Below, in pieces: positions 1 to 49,186 of a stretch of DNA of 64,000 nucleotides (within the stretch, counting starts at the first letter, position 1; each line of letters opens with the position of its first letter). The notes under the pieces are model-generated. The model ran no database searches and was not told the DNA's origin. It was given only the letters and a program-made list of their open reading frames with translations. The DNA is from Microthyrium microscopicum (Eukaryota): positions 186,001 to 250,000 of the forward strand of contig MU004236.1 of assembly GCA_010405405.1 (NCBI GenBank), in the 5' to 3' direction. Position numbers and translations under genes: made by a program.

Positions 1-871
1 GGCGAAGAATATCTAAGCAGTGACCTGTTGCACCGCGGTTAATGGATTTGGTTGTATAAGCAGATTGAATTAGAACATGCCTGCGTGCTGAATGATAACA
101 GGTTCATCGTTCGCGAAAGGTCCAAGTCCTTGCTTTTGATAGTATCGATAGTTCCAGAACGATGTTTGGCGTAGTAAATTCTACACTTTTAGCAACCTTA
201 ACGTATAATGGCGAAGGGGTTCGCTCACCAGACAGTGCATATGATGCATTGCTTCAACATAACCGACAAACCCTCCTCCAGCCGATTGCTCCAACTTCAC
301 TTGACCTTTGTGGAGTCCAAACTTCGGTCCTTCTTTTGCAGGAATTGAAACGGGCCGTACTATTAAGTTGTAACTTAGTGCCTCAATACTAGGAAGTTGA
401 TCATAGCGATGGCTCACTTACAGTCAACTCCGAGTGCAATCCATGCTTTATCAACATCGTACCCACTGCCGGCCAGTTGTCGATATATCGTCGGTTTTGA
501 AAAACTGCCATTGAAAGGTACGGTATTGTAGCTAACACCAATGTCCTGAAAGATTGGTGAGTCTATACGACTGTCAGCATTGTCAACCCTGGGTTCACTA
601 TGTGGAGAAACGAACCATACTGTTCCGTATACCGGCTACAGACACGATCTAGATCATGATGAATGGTGAATCCGAAAATAAATATCACGTTTCCAATCAG
701 TGAGGCTGCAAATGTTGTGTATATGACTGCCAACAGTACTCTTTTTCTTTGCTCCGCCTTGCAAATGTTCTGACCTATATCAATGTCATCTTGAAGCAAA
801 TTGGCTTGAGACGAGCTTGCATGAAGTGTCTCTTCGCCATGGTAGCTGATATTCAATACATGATAGTCCAT
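1..871 (-). CDS. DUF3328 / UstYa-like oxidase (fungal RiPP/mycotoxin tailoring enzyme), 3' end runs off the window
   Basis: Manual splicing: exons 871-616, 562-422, 359-229, 180-81, 24-<1. The product has an N-terminal TM segment (VLLAVIYTTFAASLIGNVIFIFGF), then ...YRQLAGSGYDVDKAW..., and two HxxHC motifs, VEAMHHMHCLNLLRQ and IQHAGHCLDILR, which are diagnostic of DUF3328. The last intron (80-25) is GC-AG. Confidence 0.9.
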
Positions 872-1647
872 GATGCTTTCTACAGTGCGACAGAAGTTCC
901 AGCTCCAGGAGTATTGAAGGTGCAAAAAGCCCAGATAGAGCCGACTTAGACGACTATTTGAGAAATTTGTAAAACAGCTTCACTCGGAAACCAGAGTAGA
1001 ATGTTGGGGAGATCTGTAGGTAGGACGAGGTACAAACGCTTGTCGAAGCAGTCCTAGAGAGATTCCTAGCATTACAATCTGCTTTCTAAGACAATTGTTC
1101 AGGCATTGATACGCGACACTATCTGAGTAGATCCAGCTTGTCTATATTGAGCTGTTCCTACTAATCTGCCAGGTCTCGCCCCTTTACTTTTATCTGATCT
1201 GTGCCCATATCGCCGAGTGATATATGTGACATTCGGTTGCATTGAAATCCTTTCGCACCAATTTAGGTAGATAGAATATACTATTTTGGGATTGACTGAT
1301 TCATGCCAATAGCCGACGTGGGTAGCCTGTTGGTGAAACACTTCAACGTTGCGCTCCTGTGGAATCTAGGGAATATCATGGCTCCTTCTGACGCAAAAGA
1401 CTTGCCTGATCAAGAAGGAGTTAGTTCAAGAGCGGCGATGCATGAGCGGCGAAGGTTTGGGATCTGTCCGAGGCACCGAAACAGTGCAGTCCTTCATGGA
1501 GTCGATTTGTGAGTTGGCCTTGCGTCTCTGTCGTCTTTATAATGAGCTCATCAGGTCGTCAAGCCATTCAACAATCCAATTTTCTATCATTTTCAGCACC
1601 AAACCATAATTGTCATCCTTACCAAACAACCAGACCATTTCTTGATC

Positions 1648-1872
1648 ATGTTGAGCCTCGTATTCTTGGGCCTCTTTGCTGCCGGAGCTGTGTTTGGAGC
1701 TGCGATACCAAAGGAAGCCGGTGTAAGACTCCATTGCATATTTTTTTCCCTACCGGATCCAATAATCGTAGCAGAACTGACAAATTCTCTCGTACAGGTT
1801 GGTGAACCCATTCAATTTTATGGACAGTACAGTCAATACTCTGGCTATGTACCAACAGTGAAGGCAGAATAG
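1648..1872 (+). CDS. Small secreted Tyr-periodic peptide (49 aa spliced); candidate RiPP precursor A
   Basis: ATG at 1648 and a signal-like N-terminus (MLSLVFLGLFAAGAVFGAAIP). Intron 1723-1797 (GTAAGA...ACTGAC...TACAG). Spliced product: MLSLVFLGLFAAGAVFGAAIPKEAGVGEPIQFYGQYSQYSGYVPTVKAE*. Transcribed divergently from the DUF3328 gene. Confidence 0.7.
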   Translation: MLSLVFLGLFAAGAVFGAAIPKEAGVRLHCIFFSLPDPIIVAELTNSLVQVGEPIQFYGQYSQYSGYVPTVKAE

Positions 1873-2640
1873 CTAGAGGTGGAGGCGGCTGTCTTCAACT
1901 AAACCAGGCTGGACAGTACTAGATGTTCATAGCATAGCATAGCAGTTTATGATCCATGAGCCATTCAAATTCACTGTGTCGTGTGCTATTTAAATAAGTA
2001 TTTCGTGCTCATGGCGATATCTCTCCTCTACATACTCCCTGTCATCATGTCGATGTGTGCTTTTGACCCTTGTGGTGTTTTGCGCACATGGTAATGCAAA
2101 AGATGTTGTGTTCTCAGTATATAGGATTAGACCATTCTCGCGCGTTATTTGCCTTGCTGGTTTGCAGTGAAATTAGTTGGGAGGCAAAACGTACAGAACT
2201 TGGCCATCTTCCACCAAGATGTAAACACAAACTTGGCAGCATTATCCACATTTTTTTCTTTGAAAAAGGATACGAGAACCACTGGTCTTGTTCTTTCTGT
2301 CTATTTTAAAGCTCAGGCTCCAACGACACGGTCCTGGTCTTTCATAGTTTCGATGGGTTTACTCAAAGCGCAAGGAATGTCGAGTGAATGATTCAATATC
2401 CTGACGGGGAGTAGTGAGTACGAAACTGGAAAGGATCAATAGATTGTAGTGAAACCTGGCTGATATACTGGTTGCGATCTAGCTATTGCAAAAGGTAGAG
2501 ACAGACAAGGGCATGTGCTTAAAAAATCTGACAGGAGTAACGATAGAGACAGAGAAAATCAAGTGGTTGAACACTTGTAAAGGATTTCATCCTTCCCACA
2601 CTTCTCCATCAGTGATGGTTACCAGACTCGGCCATGTTAC

Positions 2641-3328
2641 TTAGGACTTATCAGCAGTCTTCTGTCGTTCCTCCTGCTCTTCTGCTTCCTGTCTGGCCTT
2701 GAACTCGGCGTCAAGCTGGGTATAATCATGCTGTTGGCCGTCTGAAAACCATTAGCACATGTTTGTGTGTCAGTAAGGGACGGGACTTGCTGTATTTTGG
2801 AAACTCTTTCTTGAGCTGTTCCCAATCGTCGGCCATGACAAGCTCGTTTGCTCTCTCCATTGTCCCGAGCGGCATGAATATCACATGCTCCTCTCCAGTC
2901 TCATCGCTAAAGGTCATCTTGTGAGGATATCGGACGCCCTTGCATTTAGTTTGCTCCCCATCACGATTTGTAAAGGTAAAGTTACCGCTGGGAAGCTGTT
3001 GTGATCCTGCACCTATCTCCATGATCAATGCACAAGTATTGCTATCGCCTAGAGAGATGCAACAGCCAGGTTCCCGACAGGCAGTTAAAGCGCCACCCCC
3101 GCAGGCAGCACGATTGAATCCGTAAATATCGTTTCCGTTTCGACAGCCTACGCAGTCCCCAGTACTACAAAACGGTTTCTCAGATGTGCAGCAAAAGCCG
3201 AAGTCTTCTCCAGGTTGGGAACACTCCTGTTTAGCGCCACCGCAGCTGTTGTTCTTCCAGAATCGAAGTGTAATGTCGGCCGATGCCAATTGAGTTAGAA
3301 CGAAGAGTGTAAAAACGATGGACTTCAT
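2641..3328 (-). CDS. Secreted cysteine-rich protein (effector-like), unknown family
   Basis: Signal peptide MKSIVFTLFVLTQLASA and about 12 Cys in the N-terminal half, including two CC pairs. A probable GC-AG intron at 2790-2742 (GCAAGT...GCTAAT...TTTCAG) gives the C-terminus NGQQHDYTQLDAEFKARQEAEEQEERQKTADKS*. Confidence 0.75.
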
Positions 3329-4251
3329 TGCGAGGTTAGAATTGTCAAGTGATACTGGTGCTGAATAGAGAATGCTATGGACAGAGGAGACTTACAATGC
3401 GTGTTGTTTGATTCTTATAGAAGAAGAGCTTGTCTACAGAACAATACAACCTTCACTGGTCATGAACACGTCTCTATCTCGCCGTGTTTATGGGATGGAT
3501 TACGTGCCAGTTACTGATTGCTGCGAGGAATCGCCGTCTTCAATATGCTCAGGTCGATATACAGTGTGTGCTTAGATATTGTCGATGCGATGCTACCTTG
3601 ACAAGGAGAACCAGCTTCCTTCGAGCTGCGGATCGTCGCCAGGCAGGAAGAGACTACGAGGTAATCAGGATGTATGTCAAATTAGTATTGCGGCAAAGAT
3701 GAGATATGTTCAACTGTGGCGGAGGAAGAAACGACGAATTCTAGACTTTTATAGGGGCGGCACAGTAAACAGGCAGCAGTAGGATGCCAAGAATGATGCC
3801 TACTATAGATAACCTATAGGAGTTCAGTCGCACGACTCAAACTCTTGCTGTTATGTGCTGTGCCGCCTATATTCTTATTGGTCGACCCCTGGCCTCGAGA
3901 TCGCTAGGATCCAACTTCATTGTTTATGTCTTCTCTTATCTACGTACTAGTACTTATCGGAATTGTAATGTCGAAATCCTTACAACTCCTAGCGGCTCAG
4001 TATTTGAGCTTTGAACTTCAGGAGCTAAATCTCACAGTGAAAGCAAAATAGTGGTTGTTTTCACCAAGTGGAGGTACCTCGCAAAAGAATCGTGAAGTGA
4101 CGTAAATCAAGGCAAATTACGCAGGTACCATGTAGGTAATCATGTAAATATAGTGTATCAAAATCTTGCTAAAGTCTTTCAGGTATGACATGCCAGCGAC
4201 ACAGACTACATGCCCCTTCCCAACAGTGAGTGTCAATAGACTGTGCGAACC

Positions 4252-4497
4252 TCAATGTGCCTTCAGAGAGAGCCCATGATACTGGCCATATGTACCATAC
4301 GATCCTGAACACACGGTTAAGCTCAAGTACCAATGCGTAGGAGGCCTGAGAGTCATACCGACACACCATGGCGTAAGTGGTATACACCAACAATCCTTTG
4401 CCAAACAGTTCCCGTCGGCATGGATGCTAGTTGGCATCCCGAAGATAGCTGCACTGAGCGCAAATAGGACACTCGAGATGGATATGATGTTCTGCAT
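4252..4497 (-). CDS. Small secreted Cys/Tyr-rich peptide (63 aa spliced); candidate RiPP precursor B
   Basis: ATG at 4497 and a signal-like N-terminus (MQNIISISSVLFALSAAIFG). Intron 4358-4305 (GTATGA...CTTAAC...TTCAG). Spliced product: MQNIISISSVLFALSAAIFGMPTSIHADGNCLAKDCWCIPLTPWCVGSYGTYGQYHGLSLKAH*. The tail aligns with precursor A. Confidence 0.65.
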   Translation of the reverse strand: MQNIISISSVLFALSAAIFGMPTSIHADGNCLAKDCWCIPLTPWCVGMTLRPPTHWYLSLTVCSGSYGTYGQYHGLSLKAH

Positions 4498-5350
4498 TGC
4501 TGGTACACGTGGCCAGTCACTCGTGGTACTTAGCGCGAAGGGAGTTGAATAGATGTGAAGTTTATGGTTACTCGGATGAGAATGCCCACCGTTACTCCAT
4601 TGATATATTATTAAAAGGGGAAATGACTCGTACTGACATCCCTGGTAGGAATGATAGGATTGTGGCACGAGTAAGTGTTTTTTTGCATCGCCGCTATGGG
4701 ATTTGGAGAAAGCGTATTGCTTATCAAGGAGGTAGGGAATGATACTATTAGATCCATGATAACATTGATCTTGGCCAGAAGGCTCCGCTGCTGCAACATG
4801 TCGAGACCTCTTTCGGCAGGTAGCATCAAAAATGCCAGCAATTCTAAGCTGCGAGCGCATGCAGGCCTTATCTCACATCGCCGCCATAGAAACGAGACGA
4901 CCGTGGCCATCTATCGTACCCGCCTGAGTAAGTAGTAGACGAGATCTATGTTGGAGCCGCGCTGATAGTAAGTCTCTTTCATCACGGTAGATCTGGGAAT
5001 CTAGAATAGAACGTTTCACCAACAAATGTCACCATTGAGAATCCTTTCTACTCATGATGAATCAATTACCAATCCTTACATCATCCTTGCGGCAGAGCGA
5101 CTGAAGATTCTCGCCTCTTTAACGATAATGGGTATAAATGAGATAAAAGACTCATAATGAATTACCGGATCACCAGCTCAGTACTCAAAAGCAAACACTC
5201 CCACGATCTTTTTGTATTAAACATCTTTAACAGCTCTTTCATTGGTATGATACACCTTACAGTTGCCATTGTCACATTTCCTCAGAAAGATTATGTCGCA
5301 AAGAAAACTGAGTCAAGCTAACTGATATCAAGATCTTGCCAATTCACAAA

Positions 5351-5896
5351 ATGTTTTTCTCGACTGTGACCACCGTGTCTGTCATTACCTTTTCACTACT
5401 TGGCCAAACTTATGGAGCAGTAGTCTTGCCAACAAGAGATATTGCAACACCCGCTCAATTCGAAGGATTTCACGTCCTGACATCGACACCAACCGATAAA
5501 GGTTTGATCACCTGGTATGGATCAAACAATCCGCCCTCCGCTGCCTACAACTGTGGCAATGACGCTCCAATTGATTGCGACAACAGCAATTTAGCTTCAA
5601 AGAACATCTGTCAAGACCTTGCCAATAATCTCAACTCCGATACTGGTGGTGGCCTTCCAGTTTCGCCTCGCTCAGTTTGCATCAATAATGCAGGCAACGT
5701 CTGCTGTATCAGCTGGGCAAACGATGTAGGGGGCATGCTCAAGGGTTATCTGCTCAGTGGCTTCAATAATGCGATGAACAGTTGCAATCCTGGGAACTCT
5801 CAAATCTCAGCTAGGGTCCATAATGCTAGATTGGGAGGTGTTTGTACCACTGAATGTGTTTCAAACAGACCATCTCAATGCACAAACGGTGGTTAA
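5351..5896 (+). CDS. Small secreted cysteine-rich protein (effector-like)
   Basis: Signal peptide MFFSTVTTVSVITFSLLGQTYG and 10 Cys in the pattern C..CDN..C..PRSVC..CCISW..C..CTTECVSNRPSQC. A probable 5'UTR intron lies near 5246-5331. Confidence 0.8.
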   Translation: MFFSTVTTVSVITFSLLGQTYGAVVLPTRDIATPAQFEGFHVLTSTPTDKGLITWYGSNNPPSAAYNCGNDAPIDCDNSNLASKNICQDLANNLNSDTGGGLPVSPRSVCINNAGNVCCISWANDVGGMLKGYLLSGFNNAMNSCNPGNSQISARVHNARLGGVCTTECVSNRPSQCTNGG

Positions 5897-16846: not shown

Positions 16847-18706
16847 CTAAGCTTCCCAGCTAATCCGTATGGGTCTTCCAGGGTCAAGATACGTATCTTC
16901 GAAGGTGATTTTGCAGTCCACAACCTTTGGGTCTCTTCTCTGTCCGGGCTTCCATTCAGCAGCTGGCGGATTTGGCTTAGGTTTGTCCTTGAGAGCATCG
17001 TATTCACGACCTAGTTCCTTGATGCATTCGCAGTGTTCTCCGGGTTGTTTACCTTGACCATCAGTAGCACTAAGCTTTCCACCGGATAGTATGGTCTCCC
17101 ACATTATCAGCAATTGTGCAGATTTCCGCTGTTTATAGTGGCTCTTTTTGATCCGCTGTGTATGAACACATGTCTCACAATCCATTGCCAAGATATGCAA
17201 AGCTGTCCGACCTCTCTCGTCCACCAAAGTTGGATCCGCACCGTGGCAGAGAATCAATCTCATGAGATTATACCCAGAACGCCAAAGTCTGCTTTTTGAA
17301 GCCATGCCAAGCAATGCACTGCCAAAGGCTGTTTCCTCGCTGGGCCCGATGTCAAAGAATGGCATTGTTAGATTCGGATTGCTGCCAAAGTTGAGGAGTA
17401 CGTGCGCTGAACTAATGTTGATAAAGTTCCAATAAGCGAGAGCGAAGTATAGAGGAGTTGTATATGTCTGAGAGAAACTTGCACCAAGCATAGAACTCGC
17501 GGCCGCTCGAGAGCCACTGTACATTTCAAAAGCTTGTTCGTCGAGAATTGCCAATAACGCTTCCTCGCCATGATCCGACCGTGCCGTGTGTAATACATGC
17601 TTTAATGCATCTCCATCTCTGTCTTTTAGCGCGCGGGCAACTTTGCCTTCGATCGTTTCCGAGTCAACGACGGGATAATATTGAATTCCTGCAGGGTCGC
17701 GTCCACATAAAAGGATATTTTGAGCCTGAAGGAATAAGTCCTTGTCAGCAGGCTTCATTTTCTTGGGTTCTCGCACATCATCTTCCAATACTTCCCCTGC
17801 CTCATCGTCAGACTCTTTTCTCTTGGCCGCTCGGATATTACCCTGCGATGATTGCTTTGACTCTTGTTTGGGCCGGGAACTGGATCGTGGATGGCGAGTT
17901 CTTCGGTCTTTTACTTCTTGGAGAGCGGCTTTCAATCTATCCGTCTTATTCTTCGCCGCCTTGGTCGCTTTTTCTGCCGCTTGCTTTGCCTTTTCTGCGT
18001 CCTGGTTGGCCTGTTTGGCGGCTAGGAGCAGTTCTTTGATGCCAGGCTCGTCCAGTATGCTCTCATCGAGTTCATCAAGCTCGCCCAAAGCCTTCATCAA
18101 GAGTTTCTGTATCTCTTCTTCAGACTCCACGAATCCAGGGCCAACATCAAGGAAACTTTCCGGTTGAAAGCGCTGCATCGACGCGGTTGGATCCCAGTAC
18201 ATCTCAAATTCACTCGTAAACTGGGACACCATTAAACGCCCATCCTCGGTATCGCAGTCGAGGCGAATGTTCCACTCGACGCCTTGCGTGATCGCTGACT
18301 TGGAGATGTTCGATGAGCCCACGTAAGCGACATGGCAATTGTTATTCATCCGAAATATCCATGCTTTAGCATGGAACGTGGGCCAATTTGGCTTGAAAAC
18401 TTTGATTTGCACATTCTCCAGCAGCGAAAGGCTCCAAATTGCTGCAGCGTCAGAAATGCCGAGTTGCATTGTGGTGAGTATTCGAACATGAACACCGCGG
18501 GCGACTGCTCCTTTGAGGTTCTCAATGAGGATATCGACACCTGTCTGCTTGATATAGGAGCATATGATATCGAGACTTTGGAGGCCGTGAGACCCCAGAT
18601 CTGGTTTTAGGTAATCTTCGTACAAGTTCTTGGTGATGAGAACACGCCGGGTCTCAATCGGCGTTCCCTGCGTTGCAAGTGGTGAGGGTTTTGCTATAGA
18701 CACCAT
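16847..18706 (-). CDS. PLD/HKD-superfamily nuclease-like domain + coiled coil + ankyrin repeats (intronless)
   Basis: Single HKD-type motif FHAKAWIF...AYVGSSNISKSAITQGVEWN, preceded by VHVRILTT. A Lys/Ala/Glu coiled coil follows, then ankyrin-like segments (TTPLYFAL, LLNFGSNPN, LILCHGADPTLVDERGRTALHILA). The first ATG is at 18706 and the frame is open to 18778; the true start is uncertain. Confidence 0.8.
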   Translation of the reverse strand: MVSIAKPSPLATQGTPIETRRVLITKNLYEDYLKPDLGSHGLQSLDIICSYIKQTGVDILIENLKGAVARGVHVRILTTMQLGISDAAAIWSLSLLENVQIKVFKPNWPTFHAKAWIFRMNNNCHVAYVGSSNISKSAITQGVEWNIRLDCDTEDGRLMVSQFTSEFEMYWDPTASMQRFQPESFLDVGPGFVESEEEIQKLLMKALGELDELDESILDEPGIKELLLAAKQANQDAEKAKQAAEKATKAAKNKTDRLKAALQEVKDRRTRHPRSSSRPKQESKQSSQGNIRAAKRKESDDEAGEVLEDDVREPKKMKPADKDLFLQAQNILLCGRDPAGIQYYPVVDSETIEGKVARALKDRDGDALKHVLHTARSDHGEEALLAILDEQAFEMYSGSRAAASSMLGASFSQTYTTPLYFALAYWNFINISSAHVLLNFGSNPNLTMPFFDIGPSEETAFGSALLGMASKSRLWRSGYNLMRLILCHGADPTLVDERGRTALHILAMDCETCVHTQRIKKSHYKQRKSAQLLIMWETILSGGKLSATDGQGKQPGEHCECIKELGREYDALKDKPKPNPPAAEWKPGQRRDPKVVDCKITFEDTYLDPGRPIRISWEA

Positions 18707-19683
18707 CTCCACGGAATCGTTGCTAATGGGTACTATTGCGTATTGGGGATTTTCGAAAGAATTTTTAGTATCAAGCAATGCACGTTGTGGACTTTGGAGC
18801 TGATTCTGTAGACCTTGATTTCGGCCTCAAGATATCGGAGATGATGCGGTAAGATTGAATAGATTCTTGCGAGGAAGATACAGTAAAGCATTAAGTACCA
18901 TGGATAATGCCGAATCTACCTGTGTTGGGCTTCACCTATAAACTATAACTGTGACGGTAGAACAGAGAGTCTTAGCGCTCAGAGTTTGATATCAATTTGA
19001 GCGCTCAGTACTTGAGATCAGTCCAGCGATCGGTGTTGGGTCAAAATAAGGAAGCACCGTCCCATGATACTTCGAAAAAGGAGAAGTAAGTTGAATTTAG
19101 TAGCTACGAACAACGTTCACAAACTCTCAGGGGTAGAGAAGACTCGCTCAAGTGGTTCTCACCATTGTTCAACTCACCTGGTCATGCTTTCAATCATACA
19201 CTGGACTACTTCATACCATCAGTGGAAATGGAAGGCGACTGTACCTGCTACAATTGTCTTGAAGTGTTATCGCTAGTTTGTCTCCATGGCGAAGAGAACA
19301 GAAAGAACCCGAAGGATTTGTAGCGCAACGGTACTGCATTTTGGGTACGTATGGCTGTGTGGCAATATAAAACCGCTATGATGAACTGGGGGCTCAAGGA
19401 GGTACAAAACATCAAATACTTGAGATGAGAACCGTAGTATGCTACCAGGCCATGTATTACAAGCCAATTTCCTACACACCGTATTCTAGTAAGGTGAATA
19501 ATTTCCAATCCATATACCGCCTCATGTCTTGAAGTACAGTTCATATTATGACACCTAGATAAGCACGCCATGAAAAGATATGTCAATATGAACATGTCCT
19601 TGAACAAGTCAGTTTTCTACCAAAGCTCTTTCCTACCAAGGCTCCTTCCTCTTCTAGTCATCACCAATCCCTCAATACCTAAC

Positions 19684-25703: not shown

Positions 25704-26186
25704 ACAAAAGACGATTGAAGCACAACAACGGGAGCGGATGGGGGATGGGATGATGGGATGATGGGGGGAAAGCGCGGATGATGGATGGATAACGGGTTGG
25801 GATTGCACATGCAGCAGCAGCAGCACACAGCGGAGCTCAGCCCTGTTGCCTGCCTCCTCTAAGCTCTTAATAATTCCTCGAATCCTACTCCATACCTCCA
25901 AACCTTCTCACATCAATCTGCGCCAATTCCGCTTGATTTCCCTGCTATTCAAGTACATATCATCCCGATGGGACATTGAATAACACCACCGAAAGACGAA
26001 TGAGGTCCTTTACGGAGTTGAGATTGATTTCGCCCAATTTTCAAGCACATCGGTGCAGTTTAGCTGTGGCTCAGAATAGCAATAGCTCTCCTTCACGACA
26101 GTACCTACCGCACAGAACCCCTACCAAAGGCTAGTAAAATTCGTTGAGTCTTTTATCGGATGCATCCACAAGTAAGTCTTTAACTA

Positions 26187-29100
26187 TCTCTGCTGCGCGT
26201 TCTGTGCTACACAGGGCAAAAATCTGGCCTATTGATTTAGCTACAGATCTAGGAATCTGATTGGATCGCATAATAGGATTGAGGAGTGCGTTAGTATGTA
26301 GATTTATATGTAATTAGACTATTAGTAGCTATAAAGTAATACTAGTTTTATAGTGCTTCCTAGTGATCTAAAGATAGGCTAAAATATATAGATTTTAGAG
26401 TAGGAATTCCTTGCTAAGGATATATTATAATTAATTAATCTTTATACCGTTCGAAAGCTTAAAAGAGCTAGATTCTTATTAAATTATTAGCAAATAGCCT
26501 TATCGTCATTATTCTTAATAATTATGTTAAGTAAATGCCCTATATTAGTAGATTTAGATCCTATCGCTACTTAATGCTCTACTCGTAGAAAGAAGATTAA
26601 TAAATTAATACCTAAGACGCTAGTAGATATACCTACTTAGATTATAGGTAAAATAAGCTAAAATAACGCTCTAGTTCTAGGAATAGCTCTTATAGTATCT
26701 TAAGATATTTATACCTTTTAGACACTCGCTAGAAGTCTAATATAGAGCTAAAATTAAAGCTCTTTAATAGTAATTCCTAGCTCTTTAATTAGCCATATAG
26801 AAGAGATAGATAATAGGGCAAACGCTAGCTAGAGATCTTAATAGCCTAGATTTAACGAGTTAACTATATCTTAAGTTCTAGAGCTACTATTATAACTAGA
26901 AGGTAGTTTAATTACGCTAATTTAAATTAATAGTAAGCTAATACTAATTATCTCTACTAAGATTAGTAAATATAATATTAAAAAGGGAGGGAATAAGCCT
27001 TAACTAAATAAGATAACTATAGAAGTATTTATAATACTTTCTAATAGTTAGAAAGAAGCTCTAAAGTAGAAGAATTAGCGTGCTAAAGAATAATATTATT
27101 CTCTAGGCTTAATAACGTCTATATAGACATATTTTTAACTTCCTATTAAAGAAATAGGCAAGAATCTATTTATGCTATTCTTTTTTAAGGAGGATAGACT
27201 AGATATTAAATAGGAACTAGTAAAGGTTAAGAAACGCTTCTTTAATTATTTTAAAATAGGTACTATACTACCTAAGCTAGTTATACCTAAATAGAAGATA
27301 ATGTAGATAGTAAATAAAGCTAATAATACCTTTAAAGAGTTTAGGATGCTAAAAGAACTAGAGGCTTAAAATAATTCCTAAAAAGATGCTAATAATACTA
27401 AAATTAATATTATTATTACTAAGAATTAACTCTATAATAATGCTAATACCTATAGTATATTATTTAGTACTTATAGTTACTATGAATTACTTTACTCTAT
27501 AGTAAAGCTTAAGGGATATTGCTACGTTATTAGAAGTACTAACTAGTACCTAGTTATTAATTTAGGAACCTTCTACTGTTAGGCTAATATCGTTAGTCCT
27601 ATAAAGCCTTAAGAAAGCTTTAATAAACGCCCTCTAGATAAGATTTTAATAAAGATCTTTGTTCTTAGTACTAGTAAATAGTTTAATAAGAATTCCTATT
27701 CTAGGAGTAAGCATAGTAGTAAAGATAAGAATAATTTAGAGTACTTTAATAGTAATAATCTATATTTTAGCTTTATGCTAGTAGATATTTAGGCCATAGT
27801 AGTTATAGGCATAGAGGAGCTAGTAGTTAATACTATAACCCTAAATATTAATATTCTACGTACTAGTAGTCTATTACTACGTACGCTATTAGATTTAATT
27901 ATTTTTAATCTTAATAAAGAGTTAAAGATGTTTAAGGAGTAGTTATCTTATTATATAGGCATTAAGACGTCTTAGTTTAAATAGGTAAAGTTAATTCTAA
28001 GTGTTTGTTAAAGTAAGTGTATAAGAATTAGTTAAGTAGTAGTAGAAAAAAATGTTAGGGTCTTTACTATTGTTAACTCTAATATTAAGAAGAACGCTAT
28101 AAGCTATTTTATTGTTTAAGTTAAGGAATAGTATAATTAGGCTTAAAAGGAAGCTAAATAACTTATAGAAGAGAGTTAGATAGAATAAGATAGTTATAAG
28201 CTATTGCTAAATATTAAATTTACTATGTCTAAAGTGCTTTATTACTTACTAGTTAGTATTGAGTTCCTTTAATCCTAACTTAAGATATTCTTTAAAGAGC
28301 TAACTTTCCTATCTTTTTTCTTAATAAAGCCTATTATTTAATTAAAGCTACTTTTTTAAATTACTAAATAATTGCTTAATAGGATTGAAATTAGGGCTAT
28401 AGGGAGGTAAGAATACTAGTTATATACTAAAATAATTAAAAAGAGCCCTTAGATCTTTAGCTTAGTAAAAGCGCGCGTTATCTATTATAATGACTAAATT
28501 CCTAGGCGTAGGGAAGAGAGAATACTTTAGAATTAGATTATATTTATACTAGTAGGTAAATCCCTTATTGTTAGTATTGTATTAATATAGATCTACTGCT
28601 AAAATTCCTTATGTAGTATATGCTAGTAGTATATTCTATTTCTTAGAGCTTTAAAGTAGTAAGAATATAGCGCATTCTATATTTTTTAGGCTCTATCCTA
28701 TCCTATAGGCTAAATAGCTAGTTCCTGCGCTGTATTTATCTATATAAATAATTTAATCTAGATAATAATTATTTATTTCGTTATAGAATTCTTATTAGAG
28801 GTGTAAAGATTGTTAAATAGCTATATTATAGCACTATTTTAGTATAAATACGATAAGAATTAATTAAATAAAGCTATAGTAACGACTTACCCTCTTTTTG
28901 GTCTATTTTATATACTTTAGCGCTTAGTATACTATATTATGGCTTACTTTAACGTTAAAGACATTCATTAGGTATTCTACTATCTTGAATTAAGTAGAAT
29001 TAGGCTTTAATATTAGATATTCTACTAATATGATTATTTTTAAAGAATTAATTAAGGGTCGTCATTAAATAACTCTAATAGTGTTAAAGGAATTAGTTAT

Positions 29101-29500
29101 TTTAAGCTTTCTATGCTAATAACTAATAATCTTCTAAGAATATTCTAGGGCGCTAGTAATCTTGCGATAAGAGTACTCTATAAGAATTATATCTTATACC
29201 TAATAGCGTTTAAATTTATTAAGGTGCCTACCTAAATTTATTATAGGAAGAGATGCTATAATAAGATTAGTTAAAACGAGTAAGATTTAAGGATTTGAAT
29301 AATACTAAGAATGTTATAAAGTTAGATATTAAGATATATTATTTATAATAATATATAGAATTGCTAAGTACGCTATTATATAAATTTGTACTGTAGCATA
29401 CTCCTCTAGTCTAGGGTCTCCCCTAATTAGGATCCTAGATCTGTAGCTGAATCAATAGGCCAGATTTTTGCCCTGTGTAGCATAGAACGCGCAGTAGAGA
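26187..29500. mobile_element. RIP-degenerated DNA transposon (~3.3 kb) with ~65-75 bp terminal inverted repeats, flanked by TA
   Basis: Left end TA|TCTCTGCTGCGCGTTCTGTGCTACACAGGGCAAAAATCTGGCCTATTGATTTAGCTACAGATCTAGGA matches the reverse complement of the right end (...CTAGATCTGTAGCTGAATCAATAGGCCAGATTTTTGCCCTGTGTAGCATAGAACGCGCAGTAGAGA|TA). The interior is extremely AT/TpA-rich and has no ORF in the track. TIR mismatches are TG->TA and CA->TA. Confidence 0.9.
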
Positions 29501-30107
29501 TACTAGTAACCTGCAGAGATGAGAGTCTTTATGGAGGTAGTTGTCGAAGATCGCAATGAAGTGCTCCCAAGTGCTCCCTTAAATGCATCATTCTGGCTTG
29601 TACATTAGAGTACAACAGGTATCTCTTTACGATATTCAACCATCTATTCTACACTACTTTGAGACAATGTTGCAATAAATGTTGATGAACGGATTACAGC
29701 AAACTCAGAGCATACTACGATACGGTCTTTGAAGCAGGCGATGGCACTACGATGGCACTATACGACCTCTGCACATGTCAAGCTATTTCCCCGCTTATGG
29801 AACCAATCCATCACATATTTGAGCCCCATCGGGCTGAAGTATGATTCAGAACTACATCATACATGGACTTATGGAGAGCATCAGCGGATCGCCAACATGC
29901 CTTTCACTGCTAAAACAAGACACACTACTCACCCTACACCTTTTCGCTGGTATCTGCGCTCAAATTTTGCTGAGCTATTGCTTCAAGACAACATGCTACC
30001 ACGATCTCGCTCTTTTGAAAGAGATCATGTTCGAGTTGTTCGATGTTGACTGGGCAAAAGCGACAACACCCATCATGGTCCCAAGAGAGAAGACAGCAGC
30101 AGCACGA

Positions 30108-32629: not shown

Positions 32630-34128
32630 CTACTTCAACATTGCCCTCTTGACATCTGGTACTGGAGTTGCAAATCCGCCAGCTTCGGTAAATGTTCTCT
32701 CTGAAAGTGGAGGAGCGTTATTGCATTGATCAAAATTAAGAGAAGCCGGAAAACCAGAAGGTCCACCAAAAGGACCATTTGGCCCTCCGCAAATGTCGGT
32801 TGGCTGGGACACGAAGATGAGACCAAAGGCACAAGGTGGTAGATCACCATTGAACCCCAAGACAGCAATACCGGGCTCAATTGGCGCAAGGTTGTTATTG
32901 CAAGCCTGAGCATTGCGGAACACTGTCTCTTGATCAACACTATGGCTAGCCAGCTTATTGACAATGTCCATAGAAAGGGGCGAGCTGGGATTCTTCTGGC
33001 CTGGGATGTTGACTACTTCAAACGTGAAACAAGTATTGTCCAGAAACTTTGAACCCGCAATGCTTCCACAGACGTTGGCGTCAGTCAGAGCGGTGTTCTG
33101 ATAGACGACAATTCCCTGGGCGGAGAGGACTGCGCCAACAAGCTGCTGATTGACCTGATTGAAGCCATCAGTCAGGCCGGAGTTGAGAGAGGCCCCATCG
33201 AAAGGGTCGCGGAGAAAAGTACCGGTTCGGAAGATATTGCTAATAGGAGACAGGGAAGCGTTGACTGGTCCGGCGTTGCCCATGGCTATAGCCATATCCA
33301 GGACTGGCAGTATATCAACAGAGGCGCCGTCTTTTACAATACCTCCCATGATTTGGAATAGAGAAGTGGCAAGATTGGTTGCAGTAGTGTTGAACACATT
33401 GCTAAGCTGCGCGTTCAAAATGCTAGTCAAATCATTAACCGTGTTGGCGGGCATACCCATAGTTGGGTCATTAGCGGTCACAACTGCTCCAGCCAAGCTA
33501 ACAGCAGCCCCTACGAGTCCAAATTGGTCACCAAACTGACCTCCGGTAAGTTTGAGGAGCTTATCGGCGATTGAAAAGATGGGTGAAACCTGTTTCAAGA
33601 TGTTCGAGATGAGGTCTCCTTTGCCAGTGGTATCCGGCGGGGCGATCATAAAGTCGTTGACAATTGAACTGATTGCAAGAATATTGAGTAGAGTACTGTC
33701 GACTAAAGCTGAGTGAGCTTGAGCGTAAAAGTCGTGAATCTTGAAAGCCGCCAGTCTAATCCAGAAGACAGGAGGAGGCGTAAAGTTGGTACAATCGACA
33801 GTTGGATTGTCACAACCACTGGTCACGATTTCTCGACAATCGAGAGTTGACGAGAAACCCCCTCCAAACGATGTCTGCGAATCCAGTTGTTGTATCCAAT
33901 TGTCGGCTAGAAACGTAAGTTCAATGCAACGTTGAGTAGCACCAGTGTACACTAACTATCACCCAGTCCTTTGAGGAAATTATCAAGGAAATCCTGAGCC
34001 CCACTCTTCTGCCAGCTTGCGGGATCTGTCTCGCTTAATGTAGGAGGACATATCAATCTGGGGTCTGGATCTGCAGCCAAGGTAGCTACGGGGAAAGCAA
34101 CAAGTGCCATCAAAAGTAACTGAACCAT
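32630..34128 (-). CDS. Uncharacterised secreted protein (~480 aa)
   Basis: Exon 1 starts at ATG 34128 (MVQLLLMALVAFPVATLA..., a signal peptide). An intron at about 33956-33907 (GTTAGT...TTTCTAG) joins it to the 440 aa ORF (TDNWIQQLD...). Confidence 0.75.
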
Positions 34129-46913: not shown

Positions 46914-49186
46914 TCACTCCCACCCACCACCACTCTTCCTATCCCCCGGTCTCTCCTGTCCCAACAACTCCCTATTCTTCTCCAACCGCTCATAATGCAC
47001 CTTCGTAACCCCCCAATTCAAATAATCCAACTTATGCCCACACCGATTATGCAGTATATAATCCGCAAATTCCGGCGGTTCACAACACCCGCCCCAACAG
47101 TCCAAAAACCGTAACAACCCAAAACTCGAATGCTTCGTGTACGTATTCTCCAATATCCGCCATATGATCGGCAGCGCTATCTCATGGAAGAGCGGTATAC
47201 TCGCATACACGCGTCCCAAATTCACAAAATCATCAAAATATGCACTGGGCACCCAGTAGAGATCGCTCCAGCCTCGGCAGAATTCGTGGGTGTTTATGAT
47301 GTATTGTGGGAGTAGGTGGGCGGCGACGCGGTTGGCGCGTCTGACGTCTTCGAGACCGGTGTTTTGCCACCATATCCAGTTGGCGGTTGGGGGCGTGTTG
47401 GTGTGGCATTCGTAGGGTATGGAGGCTTCGTTGGAGAGGATCCAGATGCGGTTTTGGGGCATGTCGTGGAAGCTGAGGGGTTCGACCCAGGCGTCGAAGT
47501 GGAAGTAGAAGAGGCCGTCGATTGTTGTGTTGAGAGCACTGTTGGGGTTGGAGGTTGCGTTGGGGTTGGAGAATGCGTTGGAGTTGGAGTTGATGAGGGA
47601 GAGGAGGCTGATGACGGGTTGGTAGGGGAGGAATCGATCGTTCCAGTAGTCACGCTCGAGGGTCGTCTCGTTGGGTGGATGGGTTGTGGGGTCTTTGGCG
47701 GGCATGGAGACGTGGACGGTGTTGAAATAGGGAGAGTAGGCTTTGCGGACGAGGGCTTCGCGTTGGGGTAGATAGTTATTGATGCGGATGAAGGCGATGC
47801 TGTTCGCGAATGGTGATGTGACGGCGTTAATTGGTCCTAGGTTGACGACGGGAGAATTGGAGGTGGAGAGACGAGTAGAGGTTTGATAGCTTGTCAGCGC
47901 GGTGGAGAGGAAAACTGTCATGGTGGTTGTGACGATGAGACCGATTCCAGATATGAATGTTCTGCTGATTATAGAAGGCCGTGTCGTGTGCTCGACTTTA
48001 GCTGATTTCATAGGCTCGCTAGGTTTGGTGAGAGTTCCATTGACGTATTGATAGGCTGCTAGGACTACCACGCCTGTTCCAGGAATAACTAGAACAGACA
48101 TACTCGCTCCTAAGACAGATTCTACACTGAAGAGAATGGCAGCAGCGATTCCAAGAACCAGACAGTTGACCAAGGCATCATTGTATTTGAGTACAGCTGC
48201 TGTTGACAATCCTACGGCAACACTGCTCAAGACAGCTGAAGCAATACCACCAAACTCGAGGCTGTCGAGCGAGACGTTTTCGGAGGACTGTATAGACAGA
48301 GCGCCATAGACGATCAGGTTAATGATCGCAGTATATCCGAACAGGACTATGTTCATAGCATGGAATGATATCTCCGAGATTTGGTAGAGCTTCTGATTAT
48401 AAACTGATGAGATTGCAAATGCTATGCATTGAAGGAGGACCGTCAAAGGATCGAATACAGAGGTCTTTGTAATGTTGGGTCTGCTGAATTGAATGACTGC
48501 TGAACCACACATCTACTTTCATTAGCATAGTCTCAACAAGCGAATGTTGCTCTTACCATGAGAATCAGAGCTGCCCATTGTTGTCCAGATATCCCCTTTC
48601 CAAGTACACGGACCATTGCAATGGCAGTTACAATCACTAAGCTTGATCTAATCAACTCTGACGCGCCAGACTGTTCGCTTGCGATCGGTAGCGCCTTGTG
48701 AGAATTAGCATATTGATCTTTTTGGTAGCACATTGTATGACTGGATACTTACAACTCCACCGGATAATGTATACCCAAGAGCAATTTGGGCAAAACCGAT
48801 CATGACAGTCGATGGCATGCCTTTATGAAAGGAAAGCAAGGATCCAACGCCGCTCGATTGACCAGAGATAACAATGGGGCCATCTTCAAGGTCAATCTCA
48901 TCCTTTTCCAAATCACTTTCCAAAGCGCGTTCTCGAACATATAGCACTGCCGAGATGATAACTTTAACAATCTCACAAATAGCCACTATCAAAGGCGAAG
49001 CCAGTAGCCGCCGTTGACTGTTATCATCATATCAGTACCATCATATAGAAGGATATCAGTCAGTACATACTCTACATGTTTCGATACGAGCTGGAAGAGT
49101 AGTCCCGTACTCAATTGCGAGACTATCACAGCGAGCACTGATGCTACAGCAGGACTTTGCCATGAATCTGACCATGAAGGAAGCAT
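46914..49186 (-). CDS. Nucleotide-sugar transporter (SLC35A-like) fused to a C-terminal glycosyltransferase-like domain
   Basis: N-terminal exons read VAICEIVKVIISAVL and IVTAIAM..LGKGISGQQWAALILM, followed by many TM helices. The soluble C-terminal domain contains FYFHFDAWVEP, GWSDLYWVP, FHEIALPII and DCWGGCC. Three introns. Confidence 0.75.

Follow-up and report, generated by a model that had tools for sequence, protein, structure and literature searches.

A candidate two-gene dikaritin-like peptide cassette, pairing a DUF3328 oxidase with short tyrosine-rich precursors, in Microthyrium microscopicum

We analysed a window of 64,000 nucleotides from the fungus Microthyrium microscopicum (contig MU004236.1, positions 186,001 to 250,000 of the forward strand; coordinates below count from the first letter of this window), whose left edge carries the 5′ part of a gene for a DUF3328/UstYa oxidase together with genes for two short, secreted, tyrosine-rich peptides. 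We read this locus, with a probability of roughly 60%, as a minimal two-gene cassette for a dikaritin-like peptide, ribosomally made and post-translationally modified (a RiPP), in which the oxidase would repeatedly close ether links between tyrosines. The elements of the cassette are as follows.

1..871, minus strand: 5′ part of the DUF3328/UstYa oxidase gene, with exons 871-616, 562-422, 359-229, 180-81 and 24-<1
232..246, minus strand: first HxxHC motif of the oxidase, residues 171-175
17..87, minus strand: second HxxHC motif of the oxidase (residue 208), interrupted by the GC-AG intron 80-25
872..1647, between the two strands' genes: divergent intergenic region of the oxidase and peptide 1, 776 bp, head-to-head
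1648..1872, plus strand: peptide 1 gene, 49 amino acids once intron 1723-1797 is removed
1819..1848, plus strand: peptide 1 core YGQYSQYSGY, with Tyr at i, i+3, i+6 and i+9
4252..4497, minus strand: peptide 2 gene, 63 amino acids once intron 4358-4305 is removed
4279..4299, minus strand: peptide 2 core YGTYGQY, with three Tyr
4363..4407, minus strand: Cys/Trp-rich linker of peptide 2, with C31, C36, C38 and C45

This anatomy agrees with a preliminary description of the same DNA, which had placed a DUF3328 gene with two HxxHC motifs head-to-head with a 49-residue peptide gene and a 63-residue peptide gene 2.4 kb further on; the second lies past an intervening gene for a Cys-rich secreted protein. 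Peptide 1 is laid out as a signal peptide, a short leader, the Tyr core and a short tail; about 30 of its residues follow the signal. The N-termini of both peptides are hydrophobic (hydropathy 2.5), from which signal peptides for entry into the endoplasmic reticulum are predicted, and there is no dibasic site in either peptide, as the description had said in calling them free of Lys-Arg (KR). The region between the oxidase and peptide 1 presumably serves as a bidirectional promoter. The peptide 1 intron is in phase 0, with a GTAAGA donor, a CTGAC branch and a TACAG acceptor. That of peptide 2 is in phase 1 within a Gly codon, which is frequent in the family described below, and its position before Ser-Tyr matches the one in relative L039; alternative donors at 4387 and 4366 gave the wrong frame, and one at 4472 destroyed the signal peptide. 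Because both introns are in frame and free of stops, unspliced products of 74 and 81 amino acids are possible.

The tyrosine-rich tails that had been aligned in the preliminary description stand out in the window. Across all six frames of the 64 kb, the motif YG.Y.QY, which was defined post hoc, occurs only at the two peptide cores, against 0.015 occurrences expected, and two sites were seen in 0 of 200 shuffles; in peptide 1 the Tyr that keep the register number four, not three. The bare YxxYxxY pattern is at chance level in the window (8 seen, 5.8 expected). A weight matrix that drew on 24 relatives alone, without the window peptides, put peptide 2 first, at 20.8 bits, and peptide 1 second, at 12.2 bits, among 83,216 scored positions; the next unrelated site reached 8.1 bits. 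The mature parts of the two peptides are alike (P = 0.001). The earlier description called the peptides paralogous; their introns differ in phase and no DNA repeat joining the two genes was found, so we treat paralogy as a plausible interpretation. The likeness that had been claimed for their signal ends was not significant (P = 0.078). Synonymous codons differ at five of the eight residues common to the core and tail of both peptides. In a 5.8-billion set, peptide 1 in its unspliced frame had 0 matches among 1 candidate, and the ESM Atlas gave no usable match for this peptide. Judged from their sequences, the two precursor genes are a real, unannotated pair.

The cassette reading is carried above all by linkage in other fungi. 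We searched metagenome contigs with an alignment of six oxidase sequences, which gave 379 pattern matches; 168 were confirmed and the best 80 were kept. These 80 loci formed 63 groups, of which 36 with less than 2 kb upstream were dropped and 27 were tested for Y[GAS]xY[GAS]xY, a motif that had been set before the loci were fetched, on the strand opposite to the oxidase and no further than 3.5 kb upstream. A secreted peptide gene with this motif stood head-to-head with the oxidase in 25 of the 27 groups, as it does in the window, whereas the controls gave 0 of 27 for the same strand upstream, 0 of 25 for each of the two downstream sets and 0 of 26 for distant blocks. The linkage of such peptides to DUF3328 genes in other fungi, which the preliminary description had proposed to test, is thus strongly borne out. 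A looser motif was found in 24 of 27 groups, versus 3, 0 and 1 in the controls, and the 25 linked groups amount to about 18 lineages once close tree pairs are merged. A Cudoniella gene model (P0069), in which an exon for a signal, linker and YxxYxxY is fused to a related oxidase, agrees with the linkage. We also scanned the flanks with Pfam, covering 116 open reading frames (ORFs) of at least 150 amino acids from 20 loci after excluding 7 of 123 ORFs at the precursor genes; the neighbours were unrelated and, apart from flanks shared by near relatives, no recurring tyrosinase, methyltransferase, second DUF3328 gene, transporter or peptidase was found among these 116. Given the linkage and the lack of a recurring tailoring gene, the conserved unit is a two-gene cassette, and the head-to-head pairing of this oxidase with a Y-G-x-repeat (YGx) peptide is widespread.

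The relatives also indicate where the window peptides belong. Their precursor gene models are our own and provisional. The automated splice models are not dependable at the N-terminus, and we took from them no more than the cores and the number of KR sites; those of short relatives were cross-checked against separate readings. KR-flanked repeat precursors are the common form (L009, L013, L015, L019, L027, L031, L042 and L057), and about 10 of the 25 linked relatives have precursors below 100 amino acids. Some carry one unit plus a dibasic site (L014, L034, L039, L049 and L078) and others have no KR (L037, L044, L052, L060 and L066), the precursors of L037 and L052 being, at about 64 amino acids, as short as the window peptides. 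A precursor profile search returned 30 matches among 8000 scored, the window peptides not among them, and added further short members (P0168, P0178, P0179, P0181 and P0188); P0182 was dropped, as it resembles a bacterial tyrosine-kinase tail. For L066, the ESM Atlas gave no more than two ascomycete clusters, both weak and unnamed (0.79 and 0.78). The residue after Tyr is Gly in 121 and 126 of 167 family windows, and the strict i,i+3 register covers three to four Tyr in the window cores and up to seven in relatives. Because the common form of the family is a KR-flanked repeat protein, the window locus is a variant and not a stand-alone system, and its peptides are the minimal end of the YGx family. 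As a separate observation, L002:6771-7214 (minus strand) holds a long internal Tyr-repeat expansion with three- and four-residue spacing that is undivided by KR.

The oxidase gene starts with an ATG at 871 on the minus strand and has introns at 615-563, 421-360, 228-181 and 80-25, the last of the GC-AG type; its spliced frame stays open up to the window edge, and the C-terminus lies to the left. Exon 3 alone matches the Pfam family UstYa (PF11807) with E = 1.7e-4 and 22 bits, which as a fragment is under the 25-bit curated cut-off, and the full public model of the gene is annotated PF11807. A hydrophobic helix near residues 45-63 (best 19-residue hydropathy 2.0) is consistent with a membrane anchor, and a structure model of the Tothia fuscella homologue has a long N-terminal helix at 33-64. 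A Pfam match, two HxxHC motifs and an N-terminal anchor were all found, as expected of a PF11807 member. Sequence and fold searches of the PDB, the latter with the Tothia homologue model as the query, gave nothing significant and no solved relative. Over 201 aligned residues the oxidase is 50% identical to Tothia fuscella KAF2424211.1. The public M. microscopicum protein KAF2668186.1 is identical to exons 1-3 and skips exon 180-81, and the second HxxHC is therefore absent from it. In this exon, 20 of 33 residues are identical to the Tothia homologue, which argues that the exon is genuine. The GC-AG intron 80-25 is supported by the finding that in 12 of 13 relatives, chosen because their alignments broke there, the second HxxHC is likewise interrupted by an intron of identical position and phase. 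Public models of such oxidases can thus drop the second HxxHC through a GC-AG intron. Members of this oxidase group (P0002, P0005, P0012, P0025, P0117 and others) are often labelled publicly as ‘Tat pathway signal sequence’, which masks their identity.

In the mechanism that we propose, the shared promoter region would drive the oxidase together with peptide 1, and peptide 2 would serve as a further substrate. The peptides would enter the secretory pathway and meet a membrane-anchored, luminal copper enzyme, which would oxidatively join the phenol oxygen of one Tyr to the β-carbon of the Tyr three residues away, and do so repeatedly. Peptide 1 could yield up to three fused rings and peptide 2 two, each with a loss of 2 Da. 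For such stepwise closure, the calculated monoisotopic mass would fall from 1214.488 to 1212.472, 1210.457 and 1208.441 for the four-Tyr core, and from 850.350 to 848.334 and 846.318 for the three-Tyr core. Without KR sites, the products would be trimmed by general, Kex2-independent peptidases or secreted as crosslinked mini-peptides, and peptide 2 may in addition form two disulfides. By analogy with asperipin-2a, a Tyr macrocycle would be expected in the product of either peptide. The larger ring of asperipin-2a joins Tyr3 and Tyr6, which is the source of the i,i+3 register assumed here. AprY alone makes two sequential Tyr-to-β-carbon ethers in FYYTGY (PMC6514808; here and below, papers given by identifier are cited from extracts), and the DUF3328 enzyme CctR is membrane-anchored and luminal, with binuclear copper and the signature HxxHC(x)nHxxHC (PMC12435403). 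A bolder proposal is that a single copper oxidase zips peptides with Tyr at every third residue into chains of at least three fused ether cyclophanes, a widespread and chemically undescribed poly-macrocyclic class made by two genes, with Kex2-independent short members and with disulfides beside Tyr rings in peptide 2. We offer this as a tentative possibility that is rather doubtful in its full extent.

Several observations weigh against the cassette reading, in addition to an antisense RNA considered further below. DUF3328 enzymes also hydroxylate (PMC12435403), halogenate and desaturate, some of them on non-ribosomal peptides. The oxidase of the window might accordingly perform β-hydroxylation, desaturation or formation of a C-N or biaryl link and build no ladder of ether rings: CctR is a hydroxylase (PMC12435403), phomopsin homologues desaturate (PMC10512285), and the epichloecyclin link has been reported as a meta-position C-N bond (PMC10540207). 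The strict i,i+3 spacing and the small residue after Tyr suit repeated Tyr-Tyr closure, and we consider other chemistry unlikely.

Many relatives contain spacers of poly-Pro and of Thr/Ser-rich sequence, and their Tyr number up to about 50; such proteins may resemble plant extensins. Tyr links might form between chains and give a structural or adhesive wall material in place of a diffusible ring compound; that no transporter or peptidase recurs in the relatives' flanks would fit this as well. We judge it unlikely, if worth keeping in mind, in view of the KR followed by runs of EA/EP dipeptides in many relatives, which point to the release of short peptides, and of the small size of mature peptide 1. 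The ring closures by DUF3328 enzymes described in PMC6514808 and PMC9233826 are also intrachain.

Other adverse points concern the family and the oxidase tree. One locus group (L022) shows no head-to-head precursor; in another, the head-to-head secreted protein (L047:8104-8379, minus strand) has Pro-separated GGYKTY-type repeats with a single KR near the end, which would make it another type of core that goes with this clade of oxidases. The fit of peptide 1 to the family matrix is moderate, and the four-Cys linker of peptide 2 is atypical, as no modelled relative has it. We placed the window oxidase in a quick tree of 88 rows, with support from SH-like approximate likelihood ratio tests (SH-aLRT) only, no bootstrap, and locus proteins assembled from tblastn hits. 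Its partner there is Tothia (97), within a branch of nine rows (91) that also takes in proteins of Emydomyces (WEW58382.1), Hypoxylon (KAI6089820.1) and Aaosphaeria (KAF2010635.1). This branch lies outside the clade (95) of all 26 labelled loci, and both fall within a clade at 99. Because a member of the other branch served to rank the scan, linkage in the branch of the window oxidase is known from the window alone; L012, the only fetched locus in that branch, has fewer than 300 bases upstream of its start. This sister position, the unseen DNA to the left of the window and the presence of two unrelated secreted genes within 6 kb leave some room for the oxidase to serve another precursor, to the left or elsewhere, with the peptides as mere neighbours in a patch of secreted-protein genes. 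Peptide 1 holds the exact head-to-head place and the motif of the linked relatives, however, and such a wrong pairing strikes us as very improbable.

Three further features of the window bear on the integrity and expression of the locus.

294..560, minus strand: oxidase segment duplicated elsewhere in the genome, with loose ends at 294 and 560 and joint 359/422
1959..3681, minus strand: intervening gene for a Cys-rich secreted protein, with introns 3395-3323 and 2790-2742 (the second GC-AG)
3933..5896, plus strand: spliced RNA antisense to peptide 2, with five GT-AG joints (4131 to 5332) in run X5

Runs X5 and X6 behave as RNA, as judged from spliced joints, although they are not recorded as such. 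They contain no joint at either peptide intron and leave the unique parts of the oxidase uncovered; because their contigs show presence only, this silence is no evidence on expression. A strong oxidase signal in X5 was set aside, as it carries the letters of a truncated copy (P0011) and not those of the window gene. This copy is a near-identical 267-bp piece on another scaffold that is transcribed and spliced and has no HxxHC; letters differ at 331, 362, 389, 394 and 526. The plus-strand RNA 3933-5896, which crosses peptide 2 in antisense, is apparently the long leader, with many short upstream ORFs, of a gene for a secreted ‘WD-like_fungi’ (PF20493) protein at 5351-5896. Together with the truncated copy, which reflects rearrangement of the oxidase gene, and with cores that are shorter than those of most relatives, this RNA raises the possibility that the family is real and its copy in the window is decaying, the peptides being shrunken remnants and peptide 2 especially being silent. 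We find this improbable: the reading frames, signal peptides and splice signals are intact, as are both HxxHC motifs, the two cores have diverged at synonymous sites, and L037 and L052 are equally short.

The Cys-rich gene has no Pfam match and probably lies outside the cassette; because it separates the two peptides, the membership of peptide 2 rests on its motif. Its intron 3395-3323, which two RNA-like runs show as spliced out, takes away the obvious ATG at 3328 and leaves no in-frame AUG before the signal-like stretch, and it is possible that the gene has a non-AUG start or another isoform. Elsewhere in the window, 16847-18826 (minus strand) encodes a protein, of a kind unusual in fungi, that combines a phospholipase D-like/restriction-endonuclease-type nuclease domain with ankyrin repeats and a coiled region; 26001-30000 is an AT-rich block with GC content down to 0.25, possibly a repeat degraded by repeat-induced point mutation; and 32630-33955 and 46914-48512 (minus strand) are long ORFs without a convincing Pfam family.

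These results suggest that for one large group of oxidases the precursor to seek is a short, head-to-head YGx-repeat gene, of a kind missed by gene callers and repeat mining. To ask whether a DUF3328 enzyme can form at least three fused rings, and whether Kex2 cleavage is needed, it would be hard to find a simpler substrate than this 49-residue precursor, with its single four-Tyr core and its one enzyme. If fused poly-cyclophanes are indeed made, they would constitute a chemically undescribed class of fungal RiPPs from only two genes.

As to prior work, a 2022 review reports only five dikaritins (PMC10512285). The rule of Umemura 2020 for Kex2-processed repeat proteins (KEPs) demands at least three repeats between dibasic sites (PMC7329392). 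The window peptides and about 10 of the 25 linked relatives fall outside this rule, and KEP mining would miss the window peptides as had been predicted, whereas many relatives have at least three Kex2-flanked (KR/KK/RK/RR) cores. In the same study, DUF3328 genes peak at the position adjoining the KEP precursor, and several linked types are Tyr-rich. Because the Zymoseptoria brevis KEP KJX93192.1 on its list is two accessions from a homologue of the window oxidase, long YGx members are probably in that catalogue, although accession neighbourhood does not fix the KEP type. No YGx motif was found in the supplements of PMC7329392 and PMC6339444, a weak negative as these files hold accessions or little text; PMC6339444 lists none in the part available, and its Table S2 may bear on the question. 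Nor is the YGx family described in the extracts of PMC10512285, PMC9233826, PMC9632046, PMC5006380, PMC6941272 and bioRxiv 10.1101/2020.07.23.217166. We found no literature on a YGx-repeat product, and Nagano 2016, Ye 2019 or recent AprY enzymology may already show long members. Many DUF3328 clusters lack a recognized precursor, and for these single cores have been only guessed (PMC12048977).

Among known systems, CctR, the cyclochlorotine hydroxylase, resembles the window oxidase in its transmembrane helix and twin HxxHC, which in CctR belongs to a luminal domain, but it hydroxylates a non-ribosomal peptide (PMC12435403). The tyrosinase, methyltransferase and several DUF3328 genes of the ustiloxin/phomopsin type were seen neither in the right flank of the window nor among the 116 flank ORFs of 20 loci. 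The system of PMC10540207 shares with the window one DUF3328 gene and a pair of single-repeat precursors beside it, but each of its cores has one Tyr, kexin sites are present and the cluster includes methyltransferase and protease genes; its GigB is truncated in A. take. With this single-repeat precedent, and with the window peptides at the short end of a KR-repeat family, the early suggestion of a new RiPP locus survives as a linked precursor/oxidase cassette and not as a wholly new kind. The asperipin-2a cluster of Aspergillus flavus (aprA, aprY, aprT and aprR) is like the window in having one DUF3328 oxidase (PMC6514808 and PMC9233826) and a Tyr-rich core, FYYTGY, that contains YxxY (PMC6514808). 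It differs in its repeat precursor, AprA, and in that a transporter and a reductase belong to the cluster, whereas the window has single-core, KR-free precursors with Tyr strictly at i,i+3 and no tailoring gene recurs in its relatives. As in dikaritin systems, the DUF3328 gene of the window adjoins a precursor gene, and the cassette would work like such a system; because its precursors lack the repeated, Kex2-flanked cores, we class it as a new variant within the dikaritin-like RiPPs.

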